Assembly (NCBI GenBank): GCA_021161865.1 | Contig: JAGGZU010000124.1 | Coordinates: forward strand, 1 to 40,851 | Origin: Thermoplasmata archaeon | Lineage (GTDB): Archaea; Thermoplasmatota; E2; DHVEG-1; B18-G2 | Length of the DNA: 40,851 nt | Direction of reading: 5' to 3' | Shown here: positions 24 through 32,322 of the stretch, piece by piece | How the letters are laid out: every line of letters begins with the position of its first letter | Numbering within the stretch: the stretch's first letter is position 1 | Made by a program: the position numbers and the translations under genes | Notes under the pieces: model-generated | The model's input: only the letters and a program-made list of their open reading frames with translations | Told to the model about the DNA's origin: nothing | Databases searched by the model: none

Positions 24-1391
24 CTACGAGGTTTTTTTAACCCTTGACACCACAAGAGGTGGAAGAACGGCACCATAGGTCGGTATCTCATCAACCTCCT
101 TTATCTGCACAGAGACACCTCCACCGATTCTTTCGTTTAACTCCGCCTCTATTTTATGATATACAATGACTGTTTTTTCCTTGTTTTTTTCATCCTTTTT
201 TGGGACAACCAAAACCGTTACGTTACCATTCTCCTCCTGCACTATCTGAAACTGTTTAACACAAAAATGTTTCTCCTCACTCATCACCTCATTAGGTACA
301 CCAGTTATTGACAAAGGGGGTATAATGCCCCCATCTGCTGTAACAATGGCATCAACCCTACGTCCCTCTATGGAACCAATGCAACCAGTGTTTATCCCAC
401 AGTCACATACATCATCCGTCCATTTAACAAGGTCACCCATCCCAACGTATCTCACCACAGGGGTGCCTTTGCCATACAGTTTAGTCACCGCTACACGGCC
501 AACCTCCCCAGAGGAGACCGGATTCATGTCGTCATCCAAAGCCTCCAAGTAAACCATGTCTGAGTGGAGATGATAACAACCTCTTCTGCATTCAAAGGCC
601 ATAGGGCCACCCTCTGTCGATTCATAGACATCAAAAACATGTGCATCAAAGGCTTCACTAATGTACCTTCTCGTGAAAGGGTCAAGCACGGCACCTGAAG
701 ATGAAACATACCTTGGGTTTATATCTCTGCCAAAACCCTTTTCCATCTTCAATGTTGCCAACGCATGTAAAACACCAGGGTAACCATTGAGGAAATCTGG
801 TTTAAAATCGTTTATTTTAGCAATCATCTCCTCAGATTTCTCAGTTATGTCAAGTATCTGTATATTATCTATGGGGAGTATCTTCATCAAAAAGGATGGT
901 AAAGGAGATTTGAAGGTGGCGTAACCGGCGCTGCCATAGGTTGTATCAGCTATTATCGTTATCCTTGTCTTATCCCATCTTTCACCATAGGCTTTAAGTA
1001 TTCTAACATACGCTATTATACTCTGAAGTATGGAGGAATGGTCGACATATATTGTAATTGGTTTACCCGTTGAACCTGAGGTGCTTAACTTCTCAGCCCT
1101 CCTGGTGTTGTAACCCTCCGGGAGCACCCCTTTTGGGAAACTGTTTCGTATATCATCCTTGGTTACAACAGGTAGTTTCCTGATATCCTCAACACCCCTG
1201 ATATCCCCAGGGTTAATACCTGCAGTCTTGTATTTATTATGATAAAGTGGTACGGTGTAGGCGTAACGCACAACCTTACGCAACCTTTTATCCTGTAACC
1301 TCCTTATCCTTTCTCTATCCTGCCAGACGACGTCTACATCAGAAAGATATCCTTTGATGAGCTTAATCAGAAGAGGGACATCATCCAGCAT
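24..1391 (-). CDS. Adenylate-forming enzyme of the phenylacetate-CoA ligase / coenzyme F390 synthetase (PaaK-like) family, copy 1
   Basis: The ORF 24..1403 begins with GTG; the first ATG is at 1391. It carries the AMP-binding signature STSGSTGKP. The N-terminal YAYTVPLYHNKYKTAGINPGDIRGVEDIRKLPVVTKDDIR block is typical of PaaK/F390-synthetase proteins. It is a paralog of 8151..9521. Confidence 0.75.
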   Translation of the reverse strand: MLDDVPLLIKLIKGYLSDVDVVWQDRERIRRLQDKRLRKVVRYAYTVPLYHNKYKTAGINPGDIRGVEDIRKLPVVTKDDIRNSFPKGVLPEGYNTRRAEKLSTSGSTGKPITIYVDHSSILQSIIAYVRILKAYGERWDKTRITIIADTTYGSAGYATFKSPLPSFLMKILPIDNIQILDITEKSEEMIAKINDFKPDFLNGYPGVLHALATLKMEKGFGRDINPRYVSSSGAVLDPFTRRYISEAFDAHVFDVYESTEGGPMAFECRRGCYHLHSDMVYLEALDDDMNPVSSGEVGRVAVTKLYGKGTPVVRYVGMGDLVKWTDDVCDCGINTGCIGSIEGRRVDAIVTADGGIIPPLSITGVPNEVMSEEKHFCVKQFQIVQEENGNVTVLVVPKKDEKNKEKTVIVYHKIEAELNERIGGGVSVQIKEVDEIPTYGAVLPPLVVSRVKKTS

Positions 1392-1527
1392 CAACTTGAA
1401 CACCTCAAGAAGGTTATATCTTTTTTCTTATATTTTCCTTGTTATTTATTTAAATAAACCTTATGATTTTTCATTCGTCACTGCTCATCCGCAGCTTTTT
1501 AAACAAGTAAAAGGATTAGCCTCCCAT

Positions 1528-2820
1528 ATGAAAGTTGTGCTTCAAGTCGCTTTAGACTTAATGAACCTGCATCGTGCACTCCAAATAGCAAAAGAGGCTA
1601 TAGATGGTGGTGCAGACTGGATTGAAGCAGGGACGCCTCTCATAAAAAGTGAGGGAATGGAAGCTGTAAGAGCGTTGAAACAAAGGTTTCCAGACAAGAC
1701 CGTTGTTGCAGATATGAAAACCATGGACACAGGTGCGCTTGAAACAGAGATGGCTGCAAAGGCTGGTGCAGACGTAGTTTGCATACTTGGTGCATCTGAT
1801 GACGAGACAATAAAGGATGCTTTACGTGCTGGTAGAAAATATGGTGCAAAGATAATGGTTGACCTTATAGGGGTAAAAGACAAACTGTCAAGAGCTGAGG
1901 AAATCGAAAAGTTTGGTGTAGACTATCTCTGCCTACACGTTGGTATAGATGAACAGATGAAAGGTAAACAACCACTTAATATCCTAAAACTCGTCGCCAG
2001 GAAAGTGAACATACCTGTTGCTGTCGCCGGCGGACTTAACAGCGAAACCGTATCAGATGTTGTAAAAGCTGGAGCAAACATTGTTATCGTTGGTGGAGCT
2101 ATAACAAAGGCAAAAAACGTTACTGAGGCAACCAGGATAATAAAAAAAGCTATTAAGGAAAAAAAAGTCATAAAAACAGAGTTTTACAAGAAATACAGCA
2201 GCGAGGAACTAAAAAAAGCGTTTTCCATGGTTTCAACACCAAACATCTCTGATGCAATGCATAGAAAGGGTGCAATGCATGGTTTGAAACCCATAGAACA
2301 TGGTTTTCACATGGTTGGGAAAGCACTCACAGTAAGCACAATAGATGGAGATTGGGCTAAACCTATAGAAGCCATAGACAAAGCAGAGTCAGGAATGGTT
2401 CTTGTCGTAGATGTCAAAGGCGGAGAAACAGCGGTATGGGGTGAGCTGGCAACCTGGAGTGCAAAGGGTAAGGGTTTAGCAGGCGTTGTCGTAGATGGAG
2501 CAGTCAGAGACCTAGATGATTTACTGAAAATAGGCTTCCCTGTCTTCTGCAGACATATCTCATCTAACGCTGGTGAACCCAAGGGTTTTGGTGAGATAGG
2601 TTCAGAAGTAACCTGCGGTGGACAAACCGTTAAAACAGGTGACTGGATAATAGGAGATGACTCAGGCGTAGTTGTTGTTCCTCAGGAGAGAGCTCAGGAG
2701 ATAGCAAATAGAGCGCTTGATGTAAAAGAGCATGAGGACAGAATCAGAGAGGAGATAAAAAGGGGTGGCTCACTGGGTACTGTGCTTAAGGTGAAGAAAT
2801 GGGAGAAGGTGATGGGGTAA
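1528..2820 (+). CDS. Fusion protein: N-terminal 3-hexulose-6-phosphate synthase-like (OMP-decarboxylase fold) domain plus C-terminal RraA / 4-hydroxy-4-methyl-2-oxoglutarate aldolase-like domain
   Basis: MKVVLQVALDL...DWIEAGTPLIK...VADMKTMDTG...LHVGIDEQ is HPS-like. The C-terminal half (ISDAMHRKGAM...GELATWSAKGKGLAGVVVDGAVRDLDDL...) is RraA-like. I trimmed the track ORF (1354) to the ATG at 1528, because the extension is low-complexity and overlaps the divergent gene. Confidence 0.75.
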   Translation: MKVVLQVALDLMNLHRALQIAKEAIDGGADWIEAGTPLIKSEGMEAVRALKQRFPDKTVVADMKTMDTGALETEMAAKAGADVVCILGASDDETIKDALRAGRKYGAKIMVDLIGVKDKLSRAEEIEKFGVDYLCLHVGIDEQMKGKQPLNILKLVARKVNIPVAVAGGLNSETVSDVVKAGANIVIVGGAITKAKNVTEATRIIKKAIKEKKVIKTEFYKKYSSEELKKAFSMVSTPNISDAMHRKGAMHGLKPIEHGFHMVGKALTVSTIDGDWAKPIEAIDKAESGMVLVVDVKGGETAVWGELATWSAKGKGLAGVVVDGAVRDLDDLLKIGFPVFCRHISSNAGEPKGFGEIGSEVTCGGQTVKTGDWIIGDDSGVVVVPQERAQEIANRALDVKEHEDRIREEIKRGGSLGTVLKVKKWEKVMG

Positions 2821-9570: not shown

Positions 9571-9584
9571 TTAACAATTGTTAA
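9571..9584. promoter_or_regulatory. Perfect 14-bp palindrome TTAACAATTGTTAA between a TATA-like box and the start of the small Cys-protein gene
   Basis: Read directly from the sequence. TATATATTA lies at about 9557-9565, GGAGGT at 9588-9593 and the ATG at 9601. Confidence 0.4.
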
Positions 9585-9600
9585 AAGGGAGGTAACAAAA

Positions 9601-9768
9601 ATGAAGGTTATATTATGTGGCGGCGGAACATGTGAGACTGTTAAGAACTGTCCAGCTGTTGAAATCAACGGAGATGTTGTAACCATTGGAGAAGACGAAA
9701 ACACCTGTACCTTAACATTGGAACAGTTCAACATAATGAAGGAAAAGATACTGGCTGGAGAACTATAA
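9601..9768 (+). CDS. Small (55 aa) four-cysteine protein, unknown family
   Basis: The ATG at 9601 is preceded by GGAGGT. The sequence is MKVILCGGGTCETVKNCPAVEINGDVVTIGEDENTCTL... The track start at 9568 was trimmed. Confidence 0.5.
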   Translation: MKVILCGGGTCETVKNCPAVEINGDVVTIGEDENTCTLTLEQFNIMKEKILAGEL

Positions 9769-9779
9769 ACCAGCCTCTT

Positions 9780-10091
9780 CTACCTATTTTTTAAAAAACC
9801 TTTACTTATCATCAACTTACATAGCCTGCAAGTTTCTTTTTCTATCTCATCTTTCCCATTTTCAACGATGTTTTCCACAGCCCTTCCAATCTCCTGTATT
9901 AACTCCTCATCCTTTATCTCCACATTACCTCTTTTACCAGAAAGGTAATAGGATACCGCTGCCTCTGTTAAATCCAAAAGAGAGGCTATCTCACGTTGAG
10001 AAAAACCATATTTCTCATGAAGCACACGGGCAAACTCCTTCCTGATAATTGGTAAAATATACCAGACTACCTTCTCACACGGGAGTTTCAT
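9780..10091 (-). CDS. Small HTH transcriptional regulator with a C-terminal CxxC
   Basis: GFSQREIASLLDLTEAAVSYYLSGKRG is a helix-turn-helix segment, and the C-terminus carries CRLC. It is the last gene of the redox-island strand. Confidence 0.6.
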   Translation of the reverse strand: MKLPCEKVVWYILPIIRKEFARVLHEKYGFSQREIASLLDLTEAAVSYYLSGKRGNVEIKDEELIQEIGRAVENIVENGKDEIEKETCRLCKLMISKGFLKNR

Positions 10092-10107
10092 GAAACCACC
10101 AAATACA

Positions 10108-10755
10108 TCATTCAGTATTATGTGATGGAATATAACCCTGGTGGTTTTGAATGTACATGTCTACACCTTCTTCAATCAACTGTTTGAGAACCTCTTTTCC
10201 CTGCATAGGTGTTTTTTCCCCAAGGAAACCATATCCTGTGGCATAGGCTGGTTTAACTGTTCCTCTGTCATACCCAAATGTGATCAAAGAAAACATGGGC
10301 ACTCCGCCATTATCACCAAGGATATTGTAAACCTTGTAGGAGCGTTTAAGATTTTCATTAACATGATCCAAATTGATATGGATGAGAGTAACATTCACAC
10401 CATTAAACCTTGAAGTTACCACCAAATAGTTTTCCTCAAGCGATGTTAGATTAAAAAGTGAAGCAACCATTGGATCCATCTGATCACATGCTGCGCAGGC
10501 ATCTGTCCTGTAATGGAGAAGAACAACACCTTTGCTCAGGTTTTCAAGAACGAAATCGGGGAAGGGCTCATTATTAGCAGTTTCAAAGGAGAAACTCAAA
10601 ACCGTTTTAGGTTCAAGTTTAATACAGCTTAAACAAAGCACGGAAACAATAGTGGACTGAACATGCTCATAGGTATCTGTAGCAAAGAAAAGGTAGCCAA
10701 ATGACGATGAAAATGTAATTATAAGAACTATTTGAACTACAAGAAGTTTTTTCAT
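10108..10755 (-). CDS. Membrane-anchored thioredoxin-fold protein (CAAC active site, plus an additional CLSC)
   Basis: It has an N-terminal TM/signal segment MKKLLVVQIVLIITFSSSFGYLFFA. The Trx-like core is VVLLHYRTDACAACDQM...GGVPMF, including a cis-Pro. It shares an ATGA overlap with the upstream NapH-like gene. Confidence 0.65.
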   Translation of the reverse strand: MKKLLVVQIVLIITFSSSFGYLFFATDTYEHVQSTIVSVLCLSCIKLEPKTVLSFSFETANNEPFPDFVLENLSKGVVLLHYRTDACAACDQMDPMVASLFNLTSLEENYLVVTSRFNGVNVTLIHINLDHVNENLKRSYKVYNILGDNGGVPMFSLITFGYDRGTVKPAYATGYGFLGEKTPMQGKEVLKQLIEEGVDMYIQNHQGYIPSHNTE

Positions 10756-11561
10756 GATCCCACCTTAAACTTTATTATCTTCTGTGGACAAACATCTATA
10801 CATTTGCCACACAATATACATTCTGGGCTTCTGTTCATATTCGGTACATCTATCCCCATTGGACAGGCATCGCTACATAGATTACAATGGAGGCATTTAT
10901 CCGTCTCTATATCTATATGAAGCAAACTGACTTTGTTGAAAGGCGCTAAAAGTGCACCAAGTGGACAAAAGTATTTACACCAGCCTCTACCAGACAGGAT
11001 GATCAAGATGATAAAAAACACAAATATGATCAATGCAACCAAAAAAAACTGGTTTGGTGTAAACTCCCCAAAATTCAAGATTAAAATCGGTATAGTACCC
11101 GTTAGGAAACCAACTGGGCAGATGTCGGTGAACATGAAACCTATGAAATAGGTGGTTAAAAAAACAAGAAGCACAAGGTTAACGTACTTTATGTACCTTG
11201 CATACGGTAGAATAGATGGGGCAAACCTCTGAGAGATTTTTTTAATGGTTTTCCTCTGAGAAATCGGATAGGTTATCCTCTGCAAAAGACCTATTGGACA
11301 AGCCCAGCCACAGATTGCCCTGCCAAACACCATACCGATAACGCCGAAAAATACAAGTGGATATAACAGAAGATTCCAATCTAGTTTCCCCTTATAAACC
11401 GCATGTTCAATAGTACCCAGTGGACAACCAGCAGAGGCAGCAGGACAACCGTGACAGTAAAAAAAAGGGTAACAGAAACCTGTTTTTATCTTAAATGCCC
11501 CAAGATTAGCTAAGATTAGAAAAAATGTTTGTGACAGCAGTCTTTTGATTTGGAGACGCAT
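10752..11561 (-). CDS. NapH/MauN-type integral-membrane polyferredoxin
   Basis: It has two CX3CP motifs (CGWACP, CKYFCP), several hydrophobic helices and a C-terminal 2x[4Fe-4S] domain (CLHCNLCSDACP, CILCGKCIDVCP). I used the ATG at 11561, since the track start at 11564 is TTG. Confidence 0.75.
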   Translation of the reverse strand: MRLQIKRLLSQTFFLILANLGAFKIKTGFCYPFFYCHGCPAASAGCPLGTIEHAVYKGKLDWNLLLYPLVFFGVIGMVFGRAICGWACPIGLLQRITYPISQRKTIKKISQRFAPSILPYARYIKYVNLVLLVFLTTYFIGFMFTDICPVGFLTGTIPILILNFGEFTPNQFFLVALIIFVFFIILIILSGRGWCKYFCPLGALLAPFNKVSLLHIDIETDKCLHCNLCSDACPMGIDVPNMNRSPECILCGKCIDVCPQKIIKFKVGS

Positions 11562-11570
11562 CAACGTCTC
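11553..11570 (-). other. Predicted mRNA hairpin (GAGACG-UUGAUG-CGUCUC) with the NapH-like start codon in its loop
   Basis: There is a 6-bp perfect inverted repeat at 11553-11558 and 11565-11570. The loop contains the TTG/ATG start, and the 5' arm overlaps a GGAGAG SD-like element. Confidence 0.3.
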
Positions 11571-11572
11571 TC

Positions 11573-12064
11573 CTATGTTTTTCTCCTGATCAAAATCACT
11601 GTTGTCATCAATGCCACAATAGCAATAAACAGTTCAAACCCTGGTGTACCTCCCGAACCACCGTTACTGGATGATGAGTCACCATTTTGAGAGGAACCAA
11701 CAGTGACATTGTACATGTTGCTCTCCACATTCTCACCATTAACCTCAGCAAACACCTTGTAGTGGAAATAGGCGGTGTCATCCCCAAGTGTGTAGGTTGC
11801 TGTATAGTTACCATCACCAGTTGAGGTCATAGCTACCTCTTCAGGTAGATGACATATTGTTTTAGTGCACTCCTCAACCCACAATGTTACATTAGAAACG
11901 TTTCCACCATTAACAGTTGCATAAAATGTCACTGTTGAACCTACGGTAGGCGAAGACGGAGTGTAACTTGTTGATATCACATCGCTGCCCTGAGCAACTG
12001 CTGCACCCATGGAGAACAGAAGCATCAATACACCTGCAATGGTTACTGTTTTTACCATACTCAT
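11573..12064 (-). CDS. Secreted/surface protein with a C-terminal PGF-CTERM archaeosortase sorting signal
   Basis: The signal peptide is MSMVKTVTIAGVLMLLFSMGAAVAQG. There are several N-x-S/T sequons and a Ser/Gly linker. The C-terminus is PGFELFIAIVALMTTVILIRRKT. I chose the ATG at 12064, which has an upstream GGTGAGGT; the track start is 12085. Confidence 0.75.
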   Translation of the reverse strand: MSMVKTVTIAGVLMLLFSMGAAVAQGSDVISTSYTPSSPTVGSTVTFYATVNGGNVSNVTLWVEECTKTICHLPEEVAMTSTGDGNYTATYTLGDDTAYFHYKVFAEVNGENVESNMYNVTVGSSQNGDSSSSNGGSGGTPGFELFIAIVALMTTVILIRRKT

Positions 12065-12129
12065 ACAAACCTCACCCTTCCACATTTATCTTCGACATCA
12101 GGAGATTGTAAGTTGTTAATCCAGAATTA

Positions 12130-12351
12130 CTATAAATAATATTCCCCCTCTTTATTTACAACAACAATCTTTGAAACACCTACAACATGATAAGAGTTAT
12201 AGATGCCTTTGTCATCGATCACAAAACTCCATTTGTTAACCTTTCCATAAACGCTTTGTATCTCCTGAGATGCGCCACCAACCACAACAGACACTATAAC
12301 CGCATTATTAACTAATTCTGCAACACAAAAACTGTATAAGACAAACAACAA
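12130..12351 (-). CDS. Possible orphan fragment resembling the C-terminal half of a TlpA-like thioredoxin fold (may be frameshifted or a pseudogene)
   Basis: The only start is TTG and there is no ATG in the ORF. KWSFVIDDKG...VVGVSKIVVVNKEGEY resembles the C-terminal beta-strands of TlpA/redoxin proteins. An SD plus ATG at 12367 opens a different frame (MKHNVVVVC...) that stops after 19 codons. Confidence 0.3.
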   Translation of the reverse strand: MLFVLYSFCVAELVNNAVIVSVVVGGASQEIQSVYGKVNKWSFVIDDKGIYNSYHVVGVSKIVVVNKEGEYYL

Positions 12352-12377
12352 CCACGTTGTGTTTCATTCCTCACCAC

Positions 12378-13601
12378 CTATGGAAGAAGTATAAAGGTCT
12401 TCACAGCCATCCTTGTCTCAGATGTTTTCCCCTCATTATCCAGAGCTTTTACCTTAAGGGTGTGTTTACCAAACAGTGGACCATGCAGAGCAAAGGTATA
12501 CTCCTTATTCTCCATTTTACCAGTGTCCTGCACAGTCTGCTTAAGAGAGTTGTCAACATAAAACTCCAGTTTTATGGAATCACCGTCATCATTAACCAGC
12601 ACACTTACATCGGTTTTTCCAATGACCCAGGTGTTGCCAAGCAGCGACCAAATAAGGGGTTTTGAATGAAGGTTAACCTTGCCTTTTTTTGGCGAGGAAA
12701 ACCCCACCTGAGGTGGTAGATTACCTTCGCCTACACGCTGCATAACCATTGCATCAACCTGATGGGCAGAGAAGTCATGTGTATCCTGTGGTGGATCCGC
12801 ATACATTTTGGTTAAACTCTGAGAAAACACTACCGCGGTTGCAACAAGGTTGTCTTTGTCAACCGGCTTGTATTTTGATGCGTTCCAGTCTGATGAAAAG
12901 TTTTTGTTTTCACCTGATTTGATTGACAAGGGAGTGTCAAGGGTGTAGTCCAAGAACGCAAAACGGTAGGGCTTACCATCATAATCATACCATCTTGAGT
13001 TCGCCTCCACAAGATAAACTCTTAATATGCCGTCATAGACTTTACTTTCGTTGTTGGTTACAGAAACCTCTGTGTGAAGTAAACTTGTGTTTTCATCCCA
13101 TGACATAGAGAGGGTTAAACCAAGGTCTGGTTTCCTCTGTTTTGCAAGAGATGCTATGATGCTTTCAACCTGTGATTTGCTGTAATCGGAGCCGTAAATC
13201 ACCTTCTCTCCACCATTCAAAAAAACCGTAGGGAAACCGAGAACGTTGTAATCGTCGGTTAATCTTTTTTTTGCCTTTGAGTTTCTATCATAAACCAAGC
13301 TCACTACGGATACGGGGTATTTACCCTCATCGTATATGTTATACAGGATTGAACCGATTTTTGGACAATACTTGCAGGTTGTACCGGTTGCAAACTCGCA
13401 GAAAACAGGAGAATACGTTTCTGTTTCCTCCCGAGTATTGTTTCCGTTGTCCGTCTCATTGGATGATGAATCTGATGACGGAGCCTCAGGTTGATACGGT
13501 GTGACGTTTTCTGAGGTATAACGTGGGAAAAACACTATACTTAACAACAGTATGATGGCTATGAAGATGGCTGTTTTCTCTCGGTTTGAAAGTTTACGCA
13601 C
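12378..13601 (-). CDS. Membrane-anchored extracytoplasmic protein: thioredoxin/glutaredoxin-like domain (CKYC) followed by beta-rich (Ig-like) domains
   Basis: GTG start. TM anchor TAIFIAIILLLSIVFF, a Ser/Asn/Glu-rich linker, FCEFATGTTCKYCPKIG...GFPTVFLNGG, then about 250 aa of beta-strand-like sequence. Confidence 0.65.
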   Translation of the reverse strand: MRKLSNREKTAIFIAIILLLSIVFFPRYTSENVTPYQPEAPSSDSSSNETDNGNNTREETETYSPVFCEFATGTTCKYCPKIGSILYNIYDEGKYPVSVVSLVYDRNSKAKKRLTDDYNVLGFPTVFLNGGEKVIYGSDYSKSQVESIIASLAKQRKPDLGLTLSMSWDENTSLLHTEVSVTNNESKVYDGILRVYLVEANSRWYDYDGKPYRFAFLDYTLDTPLSIKSGENKNFSSDWNASKYKPVDKDNLVATAVVFSQSLTKMYADPPQDTHDFSAHQVDAMVMQRVGEGNLPPQVGFSSPKKGKVNLHSKPLIWSLLGNTWVIGKTDVSVLVNDDGDSIKLEFYVDNSLKQTVQDTGKMENKEYTFALHGPLFGKHTLKVKALDNEGKTSETRMAVKTFILLP

Positions 13602-13673
13602 TAAAATCCCATATAACCTTATTAAATTAATCCCTTTAAGTTTTTTTGCTTCACTTATTGTATAGAATGAGAA

Positions 13674-14282
13674 TCATTCCTCAATATACTCCCCAAATGC
13701 TTCTCTTACATCCTGCTCCGTTTCAGAGCCATACGCAGCATCAACATCTATAGATAGTATGATTACATCTCCTTTATCCAGCTTCACCTTATGAAGCTCT
13801 GGCATCTGTTGATGACAGGGAGGACATCTTACGGCCATAAAATCCAGTATGACCACCTTGCCATGATGCTCAGACAGTGTAAAGGTTTCTCCATTGAACG
13901 TCTTTAGAGTGAAATCAGGTGCTGGACCAAGTGTATGTGTAGGGTTCTGTGCCTCCTCAATTAAATCAAGAAGCTGAGATTCTGTATGCACTCCTGCTTC
14001 TTTATGAATAATGTCTCCATTTACGTCAACAACAACAAGAGTAGGTATGTATCCTGTACGGTATTCCTCGTAGTTTCCCACACGGACAGTGTTTGTATCC
14101 AGTGCAAACAGCCATTTTCCAGACTGCGGCTGTCCAGTGGGTGTCTCATGAGATGTTAATGCAAGTATGAGAGCTCCAGCGGTTATAATAAGAATTGCCA
14201 GCAAAACCAACCCATATTTTGAGTTGAATTTTTTTAATGCACCTCTATTTTCTATTTTTTTATTTGCTCTTTTCCTAGTCAT
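13674..14282 (-). CDS. Membrane-anchored TlpA/redoxin-like thiol-disulfide oxidoreductase (CPPC), with apparently circularly permuted domain order
   Basis: TM anchor GLVLLAILIITAGALILAL. Next comes YIPTLVVVDVNGDIIHKEAG...LLDLIEEA, which is normally the C-terminal part. Then comes APDFTLKTFNGETFTLSEHHGKVVILDFMAVRCPPCHQQMPEL, which is normally the N-terminal part. Confidence 0.65.
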   Translation of the reverse strand: MTRKRANKKIENRGALKKFNSKYGLVLLAILIITAGALILALTSHETPTGQPQSGKWLFALDTNTVRVGNYEEYRTGYIPTLVVVDVNGDIIHKEAGVHTESQLLDLIEEAQNPTHTLGPAPDFTLKTFNGETFTLSEHHGKVVILDFMAVRCPPCHQQMPELHKVKLDKGDVIILSIDVDAAYGSETEQDVREAFGEYIEE

Positions 14283-14303
14283 TTATATCTTCATCTAATT
14301 TTA

Positions 14304-14708
14304 TTATAAATATGGACTAAGTTTTGCCTTTAACATAGGCTTAGGCATTGCACCTATTATTTTATCCACGAGTTTACCGTTTTTGAAAACCATGAGAGTG
14401 GGTATGCTCATTATCTGGTATTTCATTGCTGTGAGCTGGTTTTCATCTACATTCAGCTTTGCAAAAACAACCTTTCCTTTCATCTCCTTTGCCATTTCTT
14501 CAATCGCTGGTGCAATCATAAGACAAGGTGCACACCACTCTGCCCAGCAGTCCACAACAACAAGATTATATTTGGATACAACTGCGTCTAAATCCTTGTC
14601 TGTCACATGTACTGGTTTATCTGGGTACTCTGGCACGTTATCACCTTTTGAAAACTTTTGCTGTAACTCCTCCAGTTTTTTTCTTCTCAGTATCTCTAAC
14701 TCATCCAT
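14304..14708 (-). CDS. trxA: Thioredoxin (cytoplasmic, WCAPC active site)
   Basis: VVVDCWAEWCAPCLMIAPAIEEMAKE...KLNVDEN...MSIPTLMVFKNGKLV is classic thioredoxin. No signal peptide or TM segment is present. Confidence 0.85.
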   Translation of the reverse strand: MDELEILRRKKLEELQQKFSKGDNVPEYPDKPVHVTDKDLDAVVSKYNLVVVDCWAEWCAPCLMIAPAIEEMAKEMKGKVVFAKLNVDENQLTAMKYQIMSIPTLMVFKNGKLVDKIIGAMPKPMLKAKLSPYL

Positions 14709-14741
14709 GTGTTGGGCGTAATGCAGATCTCATATATAAGG

Positions 14742-14762
14742 TTGTGCATAAATCTTGCACAA
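14742..14762. promoter_or_regulatory. Inverted repeat TTGTGCA-N7-TGCACAA in the trx / wHTH-regulator divergent promoter region
   Basis: The 7-bp arms are perfect. The repeat is flanked by TATA-like boxes, CATATATAAG (14731-14740) and GTTATATATC (14765-14774). Confidence 0.4.
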
Positions 14763-14797
14763 TCGTTATATATCAAAAAGTAATTCAACAAAAGGCA

Positions 14798-15157
14798 ATG
14801 GATGAAACAAATGCAAGATGCTCTGACATACTGAAGATGATGTTTAACCTAAAGGATGTTGACCTTGAAACCTACAAACACGTTATCACCATAGGTGAAG
14901 TGAGAGCAGATGAACTCGCAAACAAGGTTGGAAAAGACAGGACAACCGTCTACCGCTCCCTTGAGAGACTGGTAAAATCAGGTTTATGCGAAAAAAAGAA
15001 GATGACACTAAAAAACGGGGGAAACTACTATTTGTATGTTTATAGAGAGCCAACGGCGGTGAAAAAAATGCTTCAACAATGTGTAGAGGAATGGTACTAC
15101 TCCATGAAAAACACTTTAAATGAGCTTGAAAGACACCTTACTGAGTTAGACTTCTAA
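14798..15157 (+). CDS. Winged-HTH transcriptional regulator (TrmB/MarR-like)
   Basis: EVRADELANKVGKDRTTVYRSLERLVKSGL is a wHTH recognition region. I trimmed the track ORF (14528) to the ATG at 14798, because the extension is antisense to trxA. Confidence 0.65.
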   Translation: MDETNARCSDILKMMFNLKDVDLETYKHVITIGEVRADELANKVGKDRTTVYRSLERLVKSGLCEKKKMTLKNGGNYYLYVYREPTAVKKMLQQCVEEWYYSMKNTLNELERHLTELDF

Positions 15158-15370: not shown

Positions 15371-16819
15371 ATGTCATCTATATTAGAATACGAGCCGAAA
15401 CTTGTTTGGAAACATTTTGATGAGATAAGGAAGATACCTAGGTGTTCCAAACATGAAGAAAAAATAAGGGAATACCTCCTTGAATTCGCAAAGAAGCAAG
15501 GACTTAAAGCAAAAACAGACAAAGCAGGAAACGTACTCATTGAAAAGCCAGCAAGTCCAGGAATGGAAAACAAGCCAATCGTTGTATTGCAAGGACACAT
15601 GGACATGGTCTGTGAGAAAAACAAGGAAGTAAAACACGATTTCAGCAAAGACCCGATAAAACTCAAAATAGAAGGAGACAAACTAAAGGCTGATGGCACC
15701 ACACTTGGAGCAGATGATGGAATAGGCGTTGCAATAGCTCTGGCAATACTTGAAGACAAAAACCTGAAACATGGACCTATAGAGGCTTTGTTCACCGTCG
15801 ACGAAGAAACAGGTTTAACAGGTGCATTCGCGCTTGAACCAGGTTTCCTGAAAGGAAGGGTAATGCTTAACCTTGACAGTGAAGACTTTGGTGTCATAAC
15901 AGTTGGATGTGCTGGTGGTGGAGACACCATAATAACCCTACCTGTGAAGAAACATAAGGTAGAAGGGGACATGGCTTTCCTTGTAATCAGAATCTCCGGG
16001 TTAAAAGGTGGCCACTCCGGTGTTGACATACATGAGCAGAGGGGTAACGCCATAAAACTACTTTCAAGAATACTATGGAAGGTTAAACAAAAATGCAGCC
16101 TCCTCATATTGGATGTAACAGGTGGAGACAAACACAACGCTATACCGAGAGAGGCAACAGCATTGGTTGCAGTGAAAAAGGGTGACGTAGAAGAACTTAA
16201 AAAAACAGTGGAATCAGAGGGAAAGGACATACTGGAAGAGATAAAACCCATAGACCCTGGCTTCAAAGCAGAGGTTAAAAAAGCTGATAGCAAAAATGAA
16301 GCGCTTGACAAAAAGTCAACGGAAGATTTAATCAACCTACTCTATGCGTTGCCTCATGGAGTTCTCGCGATGAGTTTTGACATACCTGGGCTGGTGGAGA
16401 CCTCAACCAACCTCGCTAAGGTGAGAGTAGAGGGAGAAAAAGCATCTATAGCTATGAGTTCCAGAAGTTCAATAAAATCTGCTTTACAAGCAACAAGGGA
16501 TAGAATACACGCTATAGCCTCACTTGCAGAAGCAGAGGTTGAAGAGGGATCGCCGTACCCTGGATGGAAGCCAAACATGAACTCAAAGCTTCTTGCACTT
16601 GCAAGAGAGATATTTAAGAATATGTTCAACGAAGAAGCAAAGGTTGAGGCTATACATGCCGGACTTGAAACAGGGATAATTGGCGAAAAATTCCCTGGAA
16701 TGGATATGATATCCATAGGACCAACAATAAAACACCCTCATTCACCGGATGAGTATGTTGAAATCAGCACCGTAGAGAAATTCTACAAGTACGTGCTTAA
16801 AATACTGGAGAGTCTTTAA
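15371..16819 (+). CDS. pepD: Aminoacyl-histidine (Xaa-His) dipeptidase, peptidase family M20C
   Basis: EPKLVWKHFDEIRKIPRCSKHEEKIREYL..., GNVLIEKPASPGMENKPIVVLQGHMDMVCEKN and TLGADDGIGVA are typical PepD blocks over the full length. Confidence 0.85.
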   Translation: MSSILEYEPKLVWKHFDEIRKIPRCSKHEEKIREYLLEFAKKQGLKAKTDKAGNVLIEKPASPGMENKPIVVLQGHMDMVCEKNKEVKHDFSKDPIKLKIEGDKLKADGTTLGADDGIGVAIALAILEDKNLKHGPIEALFTVDEETGLTGAFALEPGFLKGRVMLNLDSEDFGVITVGCAGGGDTIITLPVKKHKVEGDMAFLVIRISGLKGGHSGVDIHEQRGNAIKLLSRILWKVKQKCSLLILDVTGGDKHNAIPREATALVAVKKGDVEELKKTVESEGKDILEEIKPIDPGFKAEVKKADSKNEALDKKSTEDLINLLYALPHGVLAMSFDIPGLVETSTNLAKVRVEGEKASIAMSSRSSIKSALQATRDRIHAIASLAEAEVEEGSPYPGWKPNMNSKLLALAREIFKNMFNEEAKVEAIHAGLETGIIGEKFPGMDMISIGPTIKHPHSPDEYVEISTVEKFYKYVLKILESL

Positions 16820-17301
16820 ACTCTCCCTTTCCTATATTTTTTGCATAACTCTTGGAGCTCAGGTGGACAACGTTTCAACTCTCCATTTCTAAGGTAATCG
16901 TGAAACAGGTTCAACCAAAATGGTTTTTCATCACAACGGTTAAGGAACTCAACAAACCTCACCAGAAGCTCAATGGTGTTAGAGGTAACAACATGCTCTA
17001 TAGTGCATGCATCCTTATCTGAAGTCTCCCCATCCAAACCAAGAGCCATCAGAAAATCACGTAAAGCTTTATGTCTATGCTGCAACTCCTCAGCAATTTT
17101 TAAACCCTTTTTAGTGAGAACAGCACCCTTGTAACGTTCATAACTTATGTAGTTCTCACTGCTTAGTTTCTGAAGCATCTCAGTGACGCTTGCAGGTGCA
17201 ATACCCATACACTCGGCTATATCACTGGTATGCACAAGCTTGTCTCCTCCCCCAAGTGCATATATGCACTCTATATACTCCTCTATTCTCCTCTGTATCA
17301 T
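16816..17301 (-). CDS. DtxR/MntR-family metal-dependent transcriptional repressor
   Basis: IEEYIECIYAL...TSDIAECMGIAPASVTEMLQKLSSENYISYERYKGAVLTKKG is the DtxR-type N-terminal wHTH plus dimerisation region. It lies 2 nt after feoB. Confidence 0.8.
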   Translation of the reverse strand: MIQRRIEEYIECIYALGGGDKLVHTSDIAECMGIAPASVTEMLQKLSSENYISYERYKGAVLTKKGLKIAEELQHRHKALRDFLMALGLDGETSDKDACTIEHVVTSNTIELLVRFVEFLNRCDEKPFWLNLFHDYLRNGELKRCPPELQELCKKYRKGRV

Positions 17302-17303
17302 CT

Positions 17304-19004
17304 CTACACACCGAGCAGAATGACCTTTAAAACCGCACCAACAACTACTGCAGTTGCTATCATAATCACAGTTGCTTTCAACATATCCTTAATCCCCAAC
17401 TCCTTTATCAAAACCGCGAAAGTGGCTACACAGGGAAAATAAACTGTGAGCATGGTCACAGCGATAACCATCTGCAAAGGAGTTAAATCAAGTGGAAGCA
17501 GCACACCAACAGCCAAGTCTTTCCTTAGGAAACCCATTATAAGCGCAACACTTGCACTCCCAGGTAAACCAAACAATGCCTGTGTAACAGGTGAAAGCAC
17601 TCTTCCAAGCCACTGAAGCACACCAGCAACATAAAGTACATTTACTATAAACACCCCAAAAAACAAGAAGGGTATAGCGTCGCTTAAAAACCATCGGACG
17701 CGCATCCATGTTTTCTTTGTCACTGCCCTAAGACTGGGGCGATGATAAGGTGGTATCTCAAGGAATATCTCGGGGCTTTCACCCTTAACAGTTTTGTTGA
17801 GTATAAGGCCCATCACAACGTAGAGCACACCAAGTGTAAGGAAAACCATTACTATATACTGCATACCATATGTTCCAAGGGCACCAAAGATCATAGCGGT
17901 CTGAGCCATACATGGAACTGCTATAGCGAGCAAGGTGGCTGAAATAAAACGCTGCTTCCTTGTCTCCAATGTTCTTGTCGCCAAAGCACCAGGTACATTA
18001 CAACCGAGACCAAGAAAAACCGGTACAATACCATGACCATGCATACCAAGTTTATGGAAAACGTTATCCACAACTGTTGCAAGCCTAGGGAGATAGCCAC
18101 TGTCCTCAAGTATTGAAAGCGTGAAATAAAAGGCGATGATATATGGTAAAACCATTCCAATTGGTACATACAACCCTGTTGTAAGCAATCCCATGGACTG
18201 CATGAAATCTATGTCGCCGTTTATCAGTTGGCCTATTATGATATCATGTAGAAAACCTGATCCTAACAGGTTGCTCAACTCAACCATCACAGGTTTATAC
18301 CACAGGTTGAAAAAAGGGTCGAAGATAAAGTTGATTAGACTCTCACCTATCAAACGCACAATCCAGAATGAGGCAAAGATAATCACTATTGCGAAGGGTA
18401 TACCTGTGAGAGGTTTTATTGTTGCATCAGCTATACGGTCAACAAGAGTGTGATGCCTGTGTTCAATTCTTTCAACCTTTTTTATAATCGAGCCGATCTC
18501 TATCCATCTCGCCTCATCACTGGTTGGTTTGATGTGCTCAGGTGACTTTGCCTCTTTTATCCTTGAAACCAGTTTTTTTATACCCTCACCGGTTATTGCA
18601 ACAGTGGGAACAGCAGGTACATCTAATAGTTCCTCAAGTTTTTTTTCATCTATATATATACCAAGGTGTTTGGTTTCGTCCCAAAGGTTTAATGCTATGA
18701 TAACAGGTTTATCTCTTTCAAGAAGCTGCAGGGTAAGGTACAGGTTTCTTTCAAGGTTGGTTGCATCAACGACGTTGATAACAACATCTGCCTCCTCAAA
18801 CATCTTCAAAGCTACTTCCTCCGCCTTGTTTGTGGGTTCAAGCGAGTAAGTACCGGGTGCATCAATTATTTCTACTTTTTCTCCATCAAGCCTCATTTTT
18901 CCTTTGGAGAAATCAACGGTTGTTCCAGGGTAGTTAGAGGCAATAACGTTTGCTCCTGTTAAGCGGGAGAAAACAACGCTTTTACCGACGTTTGGGTTAC
19001 CCAT
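17304..19004 (-). CDS. feoB: Ferrous iron transporter FeoB (start may lie upstream at a non-canonical ATA at 19022)
   Basis: It has the G-domain P-loop GNPNVGKS, DAPGTYSL, and a long polytopic membrane domain. Confidence 0.85.
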   Translation of the reverse strand: MGNPNVGKSVVFSRLTGANVIASNYPGTTVDFSKGKMRLDGEKVEIIDAPGTYSLEPTNKAEEVALKMFEEADVVINVVDATNLERNLYLTLQLLERDKPVIIALNLWDETKHLGIYIDEKKLEELLDVPAVPTVAITGEGIKKLVSRIKEAKSPEHIKPTSDEARWIEIGSIIKKVERIEHRHHTLVDRIADATIKPLTGIPFAIVIIFASFWIVRLIGESLINFIFDPFFNLWYKPVMVELSNLLGSGFLHDIIIGQLINGDIDFMQSMGLLTTGLYVPIGMVLPYIIAFYFTLSILEDSGYLPRLATVVDNVFHKLGMHGHGIVPVFLGLGCNVPGALATRTLETRKQRFISATLLAIAVPCMAQTAMIFGALGTYGMQYIVMVFLTLGVLYVVMGLILNKTVKGESPEIFLEIPPYHRPSLRAVTKKTWMRVRWFLSDAIPFLFFGVFIVNVLYVAGVLQWLGRVLSPVTQALFGLPGSASVALIMGFLRKDLAVGVLLPLDLTPLQMVIAVTMLTVYFPCVATFAVLIKELGIKDMLKATVIMIATAVVVGAVLKVILLGV

Positions 19005-21818: not shown

Positions 21819-23276
21819 CTACCTCTGCCTCCTCTCAACCTGAATCTCCTCATCTACGTTAACTATTCTCCTCACCAGATCAACAAAACGATTGAAATCA
21901 GCCTTCTTTCTTACAACAACTCTTGCTCCATCAGGAGAACCACCACCATGCATACACCCAGGAACACCAGCCCCAAGCGTCAACCATTCAATAAACCTTG
22001 CAATCTTTGCTCTTGTTTCACCACTACAATTAGCTTTAAGATACTTCATCAACAACTCACCATACCGGGAATCATTCAAATCCTTGTAAGAAGGTAAACA
22101 ACCGGTTTCACCGATACCACCAGCTATCTCCTGCGTAAGCCTTTTTGTCTCATAAGGCAGTGTCGCAACAAGCACCTTATTCACATTAGAAAGCAAAGGA
22201 TCAGGTATCCAAACTCCAGAGGGATGTTTTCTGCCAAGCACGGCTGCAGCCACACCTAAACCAAAGGTTGTCTCATTGTTCACAACCATCCTTGTCAGCT
22301 TCTCCTTAAAAACTTTTTCATCTAAACCGTTTGCCCTAGCAATCAATACGGATGCACCAACCATAAGATCACCCTGACCAGCAACACATCCACCAATCGC
22401 TGCCCTATAAGGAGCCGTGAAATTCATAACCGCTTCACCAGTGTACTGATATTCGCCACACATGAACACCCTTTCCCTTGGAACAAAAACATCCTCAAAA
22501 AGCAGATAAGCCTGAGTGATACCACCCTTCTCCACAGGGATATCAAAACCATCCTCCAACTCCCTTCTATCACTTGGTCTAGTGGCTTCAACAACCGTTA
22601 AACCCTCAACATCCCTTGGGACAACAAAAGAAACAGCGTAAACCCTATCGTCCCCTCTGTAGCTGCCACCAGGCATAACAAAAATCTCATTTGCTGCCGC
22701 AACACCACAAATCATAACCTTAGCCCCCCTGACAACTATACCCTTGCTACTCTCCTCAACCACATGCAAAAACATGTCCGAATCCTTTTGCTGACTCGGC
22801 GGTTTCGAACGATCACCCTTCGGATCAGTTAACGCCCCAGCAACCGTGATGTCTCTTTTTTGAGCATCCATCAACCACCCCTGGAGTCTACTATGATAGT
22901 TTGTACCAAGTTTCTCATCCATATCATAAGTTGTACTCCACATGGCGTTCAACGCGTTAAAACCAGCGCATCTACCACCAGTACAAGTACCAGTGAGGTT
23001 GAACATTAAACGTTTCATTTTAACGTTCGCAACCATATCCTCAGCGCTACATATTACAGAGAGATACCTGGAGACTCTTTCACCGGTTAAACAAGACTTT
23101 GTTGTAAGCAAATCCTGGTACTCTGGTTTCAACGATGCCTCAAAAATCTGAGCATGTCCCTCAACCGTTCTCCTTGTAGCAGGATGCGTGGTAACATCCT
23201 CAATAAGTTCACCAAACTTGTAAATGTTAGGTCTCATCTTTCTGAGGCTTTCCTTGTACTCTACAGGCGTCCTCAT
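21819..23276 (-). CDS. abfD: 4-hydroxybutyryl-CoA dehydratase / vinylacetyl-CoA isomerase family protein (AbfD / HpaB-like fold)
   Basis: It resembles AbfD over its full length, for example YKESLRKMRPNIYKFGELIEDVTTHP, TDPKGDRSKPPSQQKD and VVRGAKV. The Fe-S ligand set needs checking (see findings). Confidence 0.65.
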   Translation of the reverse strand: MRTPVEYKESLRKMRPNIYKFGELIEDVTTHPATRRTVEGHAQIFEASLKPEYQDLLTTKSCLTGERVSRYLSVICSAEDMVANVKMKRLMFNLTGTCTGGRCAGFNALNAMWSTTYDMDEKLGTNYHSRLQGWLMDAQKRDITVAGALTDPKGDRSKPPSQQKDSDMFLHVVEESSKGIVVRGAKVMICGVAAANEIFVMPGGSYRGDDRVYAVSFVVPRDVEGLTVVEATRPSDRRELEDGFDIPVEKGGITQAYLLFEDVFVPRERVFMCGEYQYTGEAVMNFTAPYRAAIGGCVAGQGDLMVGASVLIARANGLDEKVFKEKLTRMVVNNETTFGLGVAAAVLGRKHPSGVWIPDPLLSNVNKVLVATLPYETKRLTQEIAGGIGETGCLPSYKDLNDSRYGELLMKYLKANCSGETRAKIARFIEWLTLGAGVPGCMHGGGSPDGARVVVRKKADFNRFVDLVRRIVNVDEEIQVERRQR

Positions 23277-23809
23277 TTCTCATCCCTCAAAACAAACTCC
23301 CACTCGCACCACAAATCATCTGGGTGCTCATCCGGTGGACAAACAATGCAGTTCACAACAATATCTGAGTTAAACTCTTTTGCAAAACTCTTAAGAAAAC
23401 CCCATCTAACGTTTTTACAGGGGAAAACACCAAGGCCTTTCTTTATCCTAGTGTTCTGAACCCTACAGTTTCTGTTTCTAATAACCGCTCTACTGTCTTC
23501 AACCTCAACCTCCTTATCCTCGATATCCAAAGCCCATCCACTGTGACGCAAAGCCTTCATCATAGTTGGGATATCACCGTCTTCTAAACCTAAAAACTTC
23601 TTCAATCTCCTCGCTTCGATTTTACCCATAACCTCCCAAACCTTTCTGTCTATCTCAGTAGCAGCCTCAGTACCAAACCTTTCCTCAATACCCAAAAAAT
23701 ACAAACCATCAACAGCCCACAAGTCACGGAGATGCAAAAAAATAAAATCCGCGACCTTATCACCTGGTATCTCAGCGATCAACCTTCTATCCTCTTCTCT
23801 CCCGCTCAT
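23273..23809 (-). CDS. Uncharacterised 178-aa protein with a C-terminal cysteine cluster, translationally coupled (ATGA) to the AbfD-family gene
   Basis: It is a clean ORF with an ATG start. Cysteines occur at ...NCRVQN...FPCKN...NCIVCPPDEHPDDLWCEWEF. I cannot assign a family with confidence. Confidence 0.55.
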   Translation of the reverse strand: MSGREEDRRLIAEIPGDKVADFIFLHLRDLWAVDGLYFLGIEERFGTEAATEIDRKVWEVMGKIEARRLKKFLGLEDGDIPTMMKALRHSGWALDIEDKEVEVEDSRAVIRNRNCRVQNTRIKKGLGVFPCKNVRWGFLKSFAKEFNSDIVVNCIVCPPDEHPDDLWCEWEFVLRDEK

Positions 23810-23868
23810 ATTTCTCTACCCCATTTTGCACAAGTTAACGCAGAGGTATATTTTTCGACTACAAAAAA

Positions 23869-29150: not shown

Positions 29151-29167
29151 TCACGCTTCCTCCACTT

Positions 29168-30031: not shown

Positions 30032-30043
30032 CTAAACTTCCCC

Positions 30044-30571: not shown

Positions 30572-30633
30572 GATACCACCCAAAGGGGTTTTTAACAGGT
30601 TTGCTTAAGTACGGTGTTCTCCCATTTATCACA

Positions 30634-30652
30634 AAGTTAACTTTGTTAACTT
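30634..30652. promoter_or_regulatory. Inverted repeat AAGTTAAC-TTT-GTTAACTT in the hdrC (set 1) promoter/leader
   Basis: The 8-bp arms are perfect. The repeat lies about 25-45 nt downstream of a minus-strand TTTTATATA box (30678-30686) and about 65 nt upstream of the hdrC ATG. Confidence 0.35.
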
Positions 30653-32312: not shown

Positions 32313-32322
32313 TTTTACCGCC

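Follow-up and report, generated by a model that had tools for sequence, protein, structure and literature searches.

A NapH-type polyferredoxin linked to thioredoxin-fold proteins in a Thermoplasmata archaeon: a candidate iron-sulfur-based transmembrane reducing relay

How might reducing power reach thioredoxin-fold proteins on the outside of an archaeal cell when no DsbD or CcdA gene is found beside their own genes? To our knowledge, every textbook route of reducing power to extracytoplasmic thiol-disulfide oxidoreductases is of the DsbD/CcdA type and is fed by cytoplasmic thioredoxin. The processes supplied in this way are cytochrome c maturation, disulfide isomerisation and the repair of oxidised methionine and cysteine. 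The question is raised by a gene cassette at positions 9571-15157 of the window studied here, which is the whole 40,851-nucleotide stretch of contig JAGGZU010000124.1 (GenBank assembly GCA_021161865.1) from a Thermoplasmata archaeon. An earlier note on this DNA had described the cassette as a thiol-disulfide redox island and had suggested that its NapH-like membrane protein is the electron conduit of the extracytoplasmic proteins. Our preferred answer, to which we assign a probability of about 0.55, is that the locus encodes an iron-sulfur (Fe-S)-based transmembrane reducing relay, independent of DsbD/CcdA, which runs through a specialised NapH-type polyferredoxin. The view that this NapH-like subfamily is a dedicated membrane redox partner of thioredoxin-fold ectoproteins is built on five agreeing lines: obligate adjacency, translational coupling, repeated independent fusion to outer thioredoxin-fold domains, the gain of outward cysteines, and recurrence in both domains, Archaea and Bacteria.

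The NapH-like gene (positions 10752-11564, minus strand) is the sole gene of the cassette that encodes a polytopic membrane protein. Its product has two Fer4_5 matches (E 4.1e-17), and is matched by the napH model TIGR02163 at 100.3 bits (E 1.3e-28) and by NF007013 at 80.7 bits, scores that fall under the respective cut-offs of 213.05 and 234. Among 55 homologues with 56-85% identity to the window protein, the two CX3CP motifs (C85/C89-P and C196/C200-P) and the eight ferredoxin cysteines of the 2x[4Fe-4S] sites are conserved, and five further cysteines, C31, C37, C40-P, C47-P and C149-P, are invariant. We aligned the family with the authentic E. coli NapH and YccM from the K-12 genome. All twelve CX3CP and ferredoxin cysteines are common to the family and to both E. 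coli proteins, as are P48 and P150. Neither E. coli protein has the five extra cysteines (C31, C37, C40, C47 and C149); their counterparts of C47-P and C149-P are V/L-P and N/S-P.

The AF2 model of the NapH-like protein has helices at residues 3-24, 63-80, 125-140, 150-163 and 174-191. The family-mean net charge is +3.0 at the N-terminus, +8.2 in loop 2 and +3.0 after helix 4, against -0.8 in loop 3. Together with the need for a cytoplasmic Fe-S domain and the precedent of NapH, these features fit a predicted topology of four membrane helices with both termini inside (N-in/C-in), which would place the cysteine-rich loop 1 and C149 outward, opposite the Fe-S domain. On the alignment described above, the outward cysteines at pseudo-symmetric positions are a lineage-specific gain. 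An internal repeat between the halves of the protein (hhalign probability 88%, E 2.7e-6) pairs C47-P-L-G with C149-P-V-G and the first CX3CP motif with the second, so that each half supplies an outer "CP" and an inner "CX3CP" element. No solved structure resembling the membrane module was found: a profile search of the PDB matched ferredoxin domains only, and Foldseek with the NapH-like model gave a best match of only E 4.6.

In its four-helix module, its two CX3CP motifs at the cytoplasmic ends and its C-terminal 2x[4Fe-4S] domain, the protein resembles NapH, MauN, YccM, NosR and RdhC (PceC). It differs from NapH in its score under the family cut-off, its five extra outward cysteines and its thioredoxin-fold partners, and it differs from the NapH family at large in the lack of a NapG/NapA, NosZ, Mau or Rdh partner. 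Pfam scans covered the large open reading frames (ORFs) of the window up to position 37667; no NapG/NapA or mau gene was found among these ORFs or in the cassettes of 80 relatives. The CX3CP motifs carry no assigned chemistry (PMC5928378).

Directly downstream of the NapH-like gene lies the gene for P215 (positions 10108-10755, minus strand), a 215-residue membrane-anchored thioredoxin-fold protein with a CLSC motif, a CxAC motif and a cis-proline. The two genes are joined by an ATGA overlap, as had been reported, which we read directly in the sequence. P215 belongs to no Pfam or NCBIfam family. Its AF2 model (pLDDT, the predicted local distance difference test, 84.6) has thioredoxins as its top PDB fold matches, with target-normalised TM-scores of 0.6-0.67, and on this model the outer domain is a thioredoxin fold. 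The invariant residues are C41, C44, C87, C90 and P153. The CLSC motif follows immediately after the membrane helix, and the CxAC motif (CAAC in the window protein) lies within the fold. Comparison of the P215 subfamily with E. coli DsbD-gamma and TrxA by hhalign gave insignificant results (5% and 9%, respectively); only the fold is common to them. Along the minus strand the intergenic gaps measure 8-72 nt, a tight spacing that fits a single operon.

Conservation of this arrangement was examined with a profile search for the NapH-like protein in one genome per GTDB species, which yielded 80 loci, all from metagenome-assembled genomes of Thermoplasmatota. Synteny was scored by BLASTP of the window proteins against all ORFs of the relatives' loci, and the denominators given here and below (78, 63, 53, 77 and 76) are the loci with enough flanking sequence. 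P215 is encoded directly downstream of the NapH-like gene in 78/78 loci. Upstream, a thioredoxin gene about 1.5 kb away and a TlpA-like gene are each present in 60/63. The gene for a surface protein that we call PGF170 is directly upstream in 60/63 loci by BLAST and in 62/63 after inspection, two of the three loci missed by BLAST holding a diverged copy. Thioredoxin, TlpA-like and PGF170 genes occur jointly upstream in 58/63 loci, a recurrence far beyond chance. The conserved linkage that the earlier proposal called for is therefore present in relatives. Exceptions are graded: two loci have only PGF170, the NapH-like protein and P215, and one has only the NapH-like protein and P215. The cassette is thus layered: the NapH-like protein and P215 form an invariant pair, PGF170 extends it to a near-invariant trio, and thioredoxin and the TlpA-like protein complete the usual five-gene form.

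More distant relatives were sought with only the membrane part (residues 1-216) as query in an exhaustive HMMER search of 1.84 billion cluster representatives, which gave 1285 matches at E <=1e-3 and 325 at E <=1e-10. We analysed the best 150, which are 30-60% identical. All five outer cysteines are present in 83 of these 150, and four are present in 43 more. Fusion domains were called by local hidden Markov model (HMM) scans and checked against Pfam. Among the best 150, 22 are fusions in which the NapH-like protein is joined to one extra membrane helix and a thioredoxin-fold domain, which is TlpA/Redoxin-like in 19 and P215-like in three (P0249, P0250 and P0253). The extra helix stands between the cytoplasmic ferredoxin domain and the thioredoxin-fold domain, which would put the latter outside. 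P0250 and P0253 also have a PGF170-like domain and a C-terminal anchor; by their domain content these two proteins unite the whole core trio on one chain.

In one of the distant matches, P0306, the cysteine-rich NapH-like module is fused at its N-terminus to a GltD/NfnB-like NAD(P)H flavoprotein (Fer4_20 and Pyr_redox_2), and a TlpA-like gene lies downstream. This architecture suggests that the flavoprotein is a candidate for the cytoplasmic electron input. The layout of P0342 (L090, 3308-5677) is P0306-like as judged from length and match position alone, its N-terminal part being unscanned. Two other members, the fusion P0358 and the unfused P0321, are on bacterial contigs with PBP5, or sigma-70 and RsgI, as neighbours, and P0321 is preceded by a TlpA-like gene.

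A profile built from the bacterial-type members was run against metagenome contigs and gave 80 loci, many of them labelled as human-gut assemblies. The bacterial counts refer to these 80 best-scoring metagenome matches, which are clustered round one query lineage. In 54 loci the contig extends 1.5 kb or more to either side, and 51 of these have a TlpA-like gene, checked with Pfam, as the immediate neighbour in the same orientation. The encoded TlpA-like proteins carry a signal peptide or a lipobox, together with a WC-x-PC site. In 71/72 loci the start of the NapH-like gene is overlapped by an ORF of 45-60 residues that ends in IC[ML]EC[IV]G[IL]G. This membrane peptide belongs to NF040920, the "CD1871A family CXXC motif-containing protein" (64-69 bits, cut-off 32). 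Bacterial and archaeal modules have in common the cysteine-rich NapH-like subfamily with its C-x5-C-x2-CP-x5-CP loop, the adjacency of a TlpA-like ectoprotein, and a juxtamembrane CxxC that is translationally coupled to the NapH-like gene. They differ in that the bacterial CxxC is on a separate upstream peptide, whereas the archaeal CLSC is at the start of the downstream P215. The likeness of the P215 CLSC to the CD1871A motif is one of pattern only, and the N-terminal 64 residues of P215 do not match NF040920. The bacterial loci are without a cytoplasmic thioredoxin gene and without a PGF-CTERM protein. Peptoclostridium acidaminophilum DSM 3953 is a cultured carrier of the trio, whose members are annotated there only as "TlpA disulfide reductase family", "CD1871A family CXXC" and "4Fe-4S binding protein". 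Literature searches for 'CD1871' returned unrelated mentions only. The suggestion that a NapH-like protein serves as conduit for the ectoproteins is thus supported by linkage, outer cysteines, fusions and bacterial pairing, but its restriction to archaea was too narrow, since the module crosses domains.

The NF040920-type peptide was located at 4826-5008 in L091, just upstream of the NapH-like gene in L093-L172, and at 5874-6011 in L173. In L087 the IC[ML]EC[IV]G[IL]G motif ends a 261-residue multi-helix protein.

The first gene of the archaeal operon (positions 14304-14708, minus strand) encodes a cytoplasmic thioredoxin. It scores 118.5 bits against TIGR01068 (cut-off 96.8) and matches Pfam Thioredoxin at E 1.2e-28; with its active site D-C-W-A-E-W-C-A-P-C (WCAPC) and no hydrophobic segment it qualifies as a thioredoxin. 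An extra cysteine, Cys54, is conserved at 97%. The presence of this gene brings up a reading in which all the chemistry would be cytoplasmic: the NapH-like protein would be a membrane ferredoxin:thioredoxin, or ferredoxin:disulfide, reductase for the thioredoxin of the operon, and the ectoproteins would be served otherwise, for instance by a distant CcdA, or would be unrelated. The Fe-S clusters beside cysteine pairs on the cytoplasmic face of the NapH-like protein recall the logic of ferredoxin:thioredoxin reductase (FTR) and HdrB. The thioredoxin gene in 60/63 cassettes would fit as well, and the CcdA screen described below reached the window and flanks rather than whole genomes. We nevertheless consider this reading very improbable. 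It leaves unexplained the five invariant outward cysteines, the 78/78 adjacency and translational coupling with the outward P215, and the 22 fusions with a helix-placed outer thioredoxin-fold domain, and it does not suit the bacterial modules, which have TlpA and no cytoplasmic thioredoxin gene.

In one relative (L039), the cassette thioredoxin is preceded by an 85-residue glutaredoxin/NrdH-like ORF (CIKC), whose end lies some 1.56 kb before the NapH-like gene.

The second gene (positions 13674-14282, minus strand) encodes a membrane-anchored TlpA/ResA-like thiol-disulfide oxidoreductase of the Redoxin/AhpC-TSA type. Its Redoxin match (E 2.2e-12, 47.4 bits, cut-off 26.6) and AhpC-TSA match (E 4.1e-12) cover residues 120-184 only. 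The protein has a membrane helix at residues 24-42 after a K/R-rich N-terminus, I-P-T at 79-81 and CPPC at 153-156, and the CxxC is invariant in 69 homologues. It is classed with the Redoxin families PF08534 and PF00578; its scores against the NCBIfam equivalogs ResA and TlpA are under their cut-offs. A canonical TlpA HMM is matched in swapped order, with residues 56-113 aligned to its positions 123-179 and residues 118-201 to its positions 34-116; when the sequence is re-ordered it gives one collinear match of 158 bits. By this comparison the protein is a natural circular permutant, in which the anchor is followed by the C-terminal half with the cis-proline and then by the N-terminal half with CPPC. 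The original description of an anchored, TlpA-like protein with CPPC stands, and only its fold has to be redescribed as permuted. Permuted order occurs in about 8 of the 69 family members, all with CPPC: the window gene, L004, L049, L067, L072, L074, L075 and L082.

The TlpA-like protein, P215 and a 407-residue surface protein discussed below each begin with a K/R-rich N-terminus followed by a single hydrophobic helix. These positive N-termini, each with one membrane helix after it, place the thioredoxin-fold domains in the extracytoplasmic space by prediction, and the extra helix of the fusion proteins agrees. This is the side of the membrane on which they had been expected.

The near-invariant PGF170 (positions 11573-12064, minus strand) is a surface protein consisting of a signal peptide, a domain of about 100 residues, a G/N/D-rich linker and a PGF-CTERM anchor. 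Its ORF spans 11573-12085 on the minus strand, and the start used in a called homologue corresponds to 12064. The sorting signal scores 23.4 bits with PF18204 (cut-off 18.8) and 28.8 with the Heimdall-CTERM model NF045529 (cut-off 24); with TIGR04126 it scores 20.2, under the cut-off of 24.5. The C-terminus thus passes both a PGF-CTERM and a Heimdall-CTERM cut-off, although the host belongs to the Thermoplasmatota. The domain is probably beta-sandwich-like, with an invariant E-C-x4-10-C hairpin and a conserved methionine. In alignments of 38-74 homologues C73 and C78 are invariant and E72 and M86 are conserved at 90% or above; the spacing between the cysteines varies from 4 to 10 residues, and there is no conserved histidine. 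A PDB profile search with the family gave no match at E <=1. The motif C-T-K-T-I-C-H (CX4CH) was considered as a site of heme attachment and rejected, the histidine being kept in only 9% of 74 homologues.

Conserved cysteines, glutamate and methionine on a surface protein may also be read in terms of metals. The NapH-like protein could then be a cupric, metal or metalloid reductase in the style of CcoG/FixG, and the TlpA-like, thioredoxin-fold and Cys/Met surface proteins could be metallochaperones or their reductants, as TlpA and Sco are in CuA assembly. CcoG, a polyferredoxin of the NapH/YccM family, has been shown to reduce Cu(II) (PMC7558416), and the CcoG/FixG/RdxA proteins share with the window protein their superfamily and their Fe-S clusters on the cytoplasmic face, so that the scaffold can evidently reduce targets beyond a nitrate reductase partner (PMC7558416). 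The window protein has a weak match to the ccoG model TIGR02745 (E 3.5e-11), one TlpA homologue (L003) also matches SCO1-SenC, PGF170 conserves E, C, C and M, and FeoB and DtxR genes lie 2-4 kb away. We still regard a metal-handling role as very unlikely. The ccoG score, 42.7 bits, is far under the cut-off of 316.7, and the match is restricted to the ferredoxin part (residues 221-266); the NapH-like chain has no immunoglobulin (Ig)-like C-terminal domain; and the Pfam-scanned window ORFs include no cco genes. CcoG is described as reducing copper on the cytoplasmic face (PMC8267372, Table 1), whereas the extra cysteines of the window family face outward. In 80 cassettes, surveyed by homology to window genes, there is no cuproenzyme, P1B-ATPase, CopZ, Sco (CxxxC and His) or PCuAC, and the variable cysteine spacing of PGF170 and its lack of a conserved histidine would be unusual for a defined metal site.

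No CcdA or DsbD was found in the window, either by Pfam scans of the large ORFs or by a motif screen of every window ORF, as the earlier note had claimed. The motif screen, for an ORF with PCxxP and at least four hydrophobic segments, was extended to about 1.2 Mb of flanking sequence at 84 loci and again found no CcdA-like ORF, and no cassette protein matched DsbD_TM (PF02683) in Pfam or NCBIfam searches. The proposed function, carrying reducing power from the cytoplasm to ectoproteins of the TlpA/CcmG/ResA type, is nonetheless that of DsbD, CcdA and ScsB. The order of the core, PGF170, NapH-like protein and P215, mirrors the alpha, beta and gamma parts of DsbD (cysteine hairpin, membrane part and thioredoxin fold), and the membrane proteins of both systems have pseudo-symmetric halves, each with a Cys-Pro element. 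The parts of the cassette are without demonstrable homology to those of DsbD, however, and include no DsbD_TM or PCxxP membrane protein. Pfam DsbD_N (PF11412) gives weak scores of 12.2-12.6 bits (cut-off 25) with 2/38 PGF170 members, over the hairpin only, and the hhalign match of PGF170 with DsbD-alpha is local and weak (probability 20%). DsbD itself is purely thiol-based and thioredoxin-dependent, whereas the NapH-like protein, with two [4Fe-4S] sites and CX3CP motifs, may accept one-electron input through Fe-S clusters.

A second comparison is with flavin-based systems. In Meheust et al. 2021 (eLife; PMC8238504), NapH-like proteins are proposed as modular transmembrane electron conduits for flavinylated ectoproteins. 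The likeness to the present cassette is an Fe-S membrane protein of the NapH type used as a modular conduit to extracytosolic redox proteins. The systems described there are defined by an ApbE-flavinylated FMN-binding domain, whereas the window cassette has none and its outward chemistry would be cysteine-based; no cassette protein matched FMN_bind or ApbE in Pfam or NCBIfam. The passages of PMC8238504 that we consulted do not report the pairing of NapH-like proteins with TlpA or thioredoxin-fold proteins. In a literature search that left most subscription journals outside, we found no paper linking NapH-type proteins with TlpA, ResA, CcdA or thioredoxin-fold partners. The type of conduit is already known, and what would be new is its wiring to cysteine-based partners in the role of DsbD/CcdA.

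We infer that electrons are carried across, that they flow reductively, what donates them, which component follows which and what is reduced in the end, and propose the following scheme. On the cytoplasmic side the two [4Fe-4S] clusters would take up electrons, probably from a ferredoxin-like protein or an NAD(P)H flavoprotein, and the thioredoxin of the operon may act on this face. The electrons would move on to the CX3CP motifs, one at the inner end of helix 2 and one at that of helix 4, and from there across the membrane to the five outward cysteines, including the pseudo-symmetric pair C47-P/C149-P. Thiol-disulfide exchange could then transfer them to the co-translated P215, to its juxtamembrane CLSC and afterwards to its CxAC. 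From P215 they would reach the TlpA-like protein and the cysteine-hairpin protein PGF170, which may keep extracytoplasmic cysteines reduced or may reduce external disulfides.

The reductive direction is favoured by the TlpA/ResA/DsbE-type partners, the thioredoxin that heads the archaeal operon, the NAD(P)H flavoprotein fused in some members and the anaerobic hosts. The machinery could in principle be run the other way, in a manner resembling DsbB or VKOR. The anchored thioredoxin-fold proteins would then make disulfides in surface proteins and be re-oxidised by the outer cysteines of the NapH-like protein, which would hand electrons either to quinone or, by way of its CX3CP motifs and Fe-S clusters, to an acceptor in the cytoplasm. 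Fusions of VKOR with thioredoxin are known, and the NapH-like/thioredoxin-fold fusions parallel them. The NapH-like protein resembles DsbB and VKOR in its four membrane helices and in the cysteines that each of its outer loops carries, and the earlier note had allowed for draining besides feeding. NapH is moreover regarded as quinol-interacting (PMC5928378; PMC8238504). We judge an oxidative role unlikely all the same. The partners, with WC-x-PC sites, are of a type that characteristically acts as reductant; a cytoplasmic thioredoxin heads the operon in 60/63 loci; the NAD(P)H-dependent GltD-like fusion suits electron input, while transfer from thiol to NAD(P)+ would be uphill; and the hosts are anaerobes with Mvh/Hdr, or gut Clostridia.

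Several points weigh against the reducing relay proposed here. All of its members are known from sequences and predicted structures alone. The AF2 model of the NapH-like protein is of moderate quality (pLDDT 73, with the cysteine-rich loop under 50), and no Cys-Cys distances back a relay. The chemistry of the CX3CP motif, through which electrons would have to pass, is unassigned in the literature (PMC5928378). A CcdA or DsbD may sit elsewhere, the screen having covered the window and flanks. The archaeal cassette has a cytoplasmic thioredoxin and the bacterial versions do not, which leaves either thioredoxin or Fe-S as input. By analogy with canonical NapH, which is thought to act on quinol, a quinone-linked and perhaps oxidative mode is possible. 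Finally, no terminal substrate is identifiable.

For a broader proposal we would offer slightly less than even odds: that the cysteine-rich NapH-like subfamily forms a third class of transmembrane disulfide reductase, with a mechanism of its own, beside DsbD and CcdA, and apart from the oxidative DsbB/VKOR proteins. It would be fed through Fe-S by ferredoxin or NAD(P)H flavoproteins, not by thioredoxin alone, would reduce the outward cysteine cluster and would thereby serve the TlpA-like ectoproteins of anaerobic archaea and bacteria, with Thermoplasmatota of sediments and Clostridia of the human gut as examples.

All ten ORFs attributed to the cassette exist at or near the places claimed for them, with families assigned by Pfam and NCBIfam. 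Besides the five core genes they include several that are peripheral. A gene at positions 12378-13601 (minus strand) encodes an accessory, anchored 407-residue surface protein with CKYC, a weakly Trx/Grx-like N-terminal domain and Ig-like domains. Its membrane helix is at residues 10-28, its only matches are weak ones to Thioredoxin_3 (E 0.0019) and Big_7 (E 0.007), and its best PDB sequence match is the M. jannaschii thioredoxin 1fo5 at E 0.22. Within the cassette, L003 alone was seen to have a full-length homologue; in other loci similarity is confined to the middle domain and to neighbouring genes on the opposite strand. The 73-residue ORF at positions 12130-12351 (minus strand) has no Pfam match. 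In BLASTP comparisons with six loci it is 24-34% identical to the C-terminal half of a TlpA-like protein, and it is a degenerate remnant of such a half; the cis-proline is lost, its position reading 'VSK'. The ORF may be a leftover of the duplication that made the permuted TlpA gene two genes upstream.

The last gene of the strand (positions 9780-10091, minus strand) encodes a 103-residue protein with a weak helix-turn-helix (HTH) domain and a C-terminal CRLC; its matches to HTH_3 (E 5e-4) and Sigma70_r4_2 (E 4e-4) are each under cut-off. It has a homologue near the cassette in 0/76 relatives. The 407-residue gene, the fragment and the HTH gene are all present in the window, as had been said, but as lineage-specific additions outside the conserved core.

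Divergent from the operon is a winged-helix regulator of the TrmB/Lrs14/Sta1 type (positions 14798-15157, plus strand), matched by Pfam TrmB (E 1.3e-12) and, under cut-off, by the NCBIfam models Sta1 (E 1.9e-18) and Lrs14 (E 2.6e-13). A divergent winged-helix gene had been noted before, and its type is now narrowed; the ORF listed from 14528 is corrected to the conserved start, a methionine at 14798. A divergent homologue occurs in 17/53 loci. Convergent with the operon, at positions 9601-9768 (plus strand), is a gene for a 55-residue cytoplasmic protein with four cysteines (C-x4-C-x5-CP...C), which are invariant in 26 sequences with a mean column identity of 79%. It has no Pfam or PDB relative and represents an undescribed family. 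A homologue is convergent at the end of the cassette in 42/77 loci, and the protein may serve as a redox or metal partner in the cytoplasm or be a mere syntenic neighbour.

Elsewhere the window encodes MvhADG, two HdrABC-like sets, a Mbh/complex-I-like module, FeoB and DtxR. Positions 21819-40795 form a dense block of anaerobic energy metabolism, with HpaB-like, DUF6125, HycI, MvhA/G/D-like and HdrA/B/C-like genes, a second HdrA-MvhD fusion with HdrB/C-like genes, and complex-I/Mbh-like 49-kDa, 30-kDa and 20-kDa subunits. A DtxR-type iron-dependent repressor gene adjoins FeoB at 16816-19004 (minus strand), about 2 kb from the redox cassette; this closeness is probably incidental. One ORF at 1354-2820 (plus strand) combines an OMP-decarboxylase/HUMPS-family domain with an RraA-like aldolase domain.

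If the proposed relay is real, many strict anaerobes own an unrelated, Fe-S-based conduit for a task otherwise given to DsbD and CcdA, and this could explain how reduced surface cysteines are maintained in organisms without an obvious CcdA. The CX3CP motifs of NapH, NosR and RdhC, whose chemistry has been open for two decades (PMC5928378), would gain a concrete role, and the idea of a modular NapH-like conduit (PMC8238504) would widen from flavin to cysteine partners. Since the bacterial version is found in cultured Clostridia such as Peptoclostridium acidaminophilum, the hypothesis is directly testable. In protein-degrading sediment archaea the relay might, more speculatively, serve to reduce the disulfides of external substrates or of the cell's own surface proteins.

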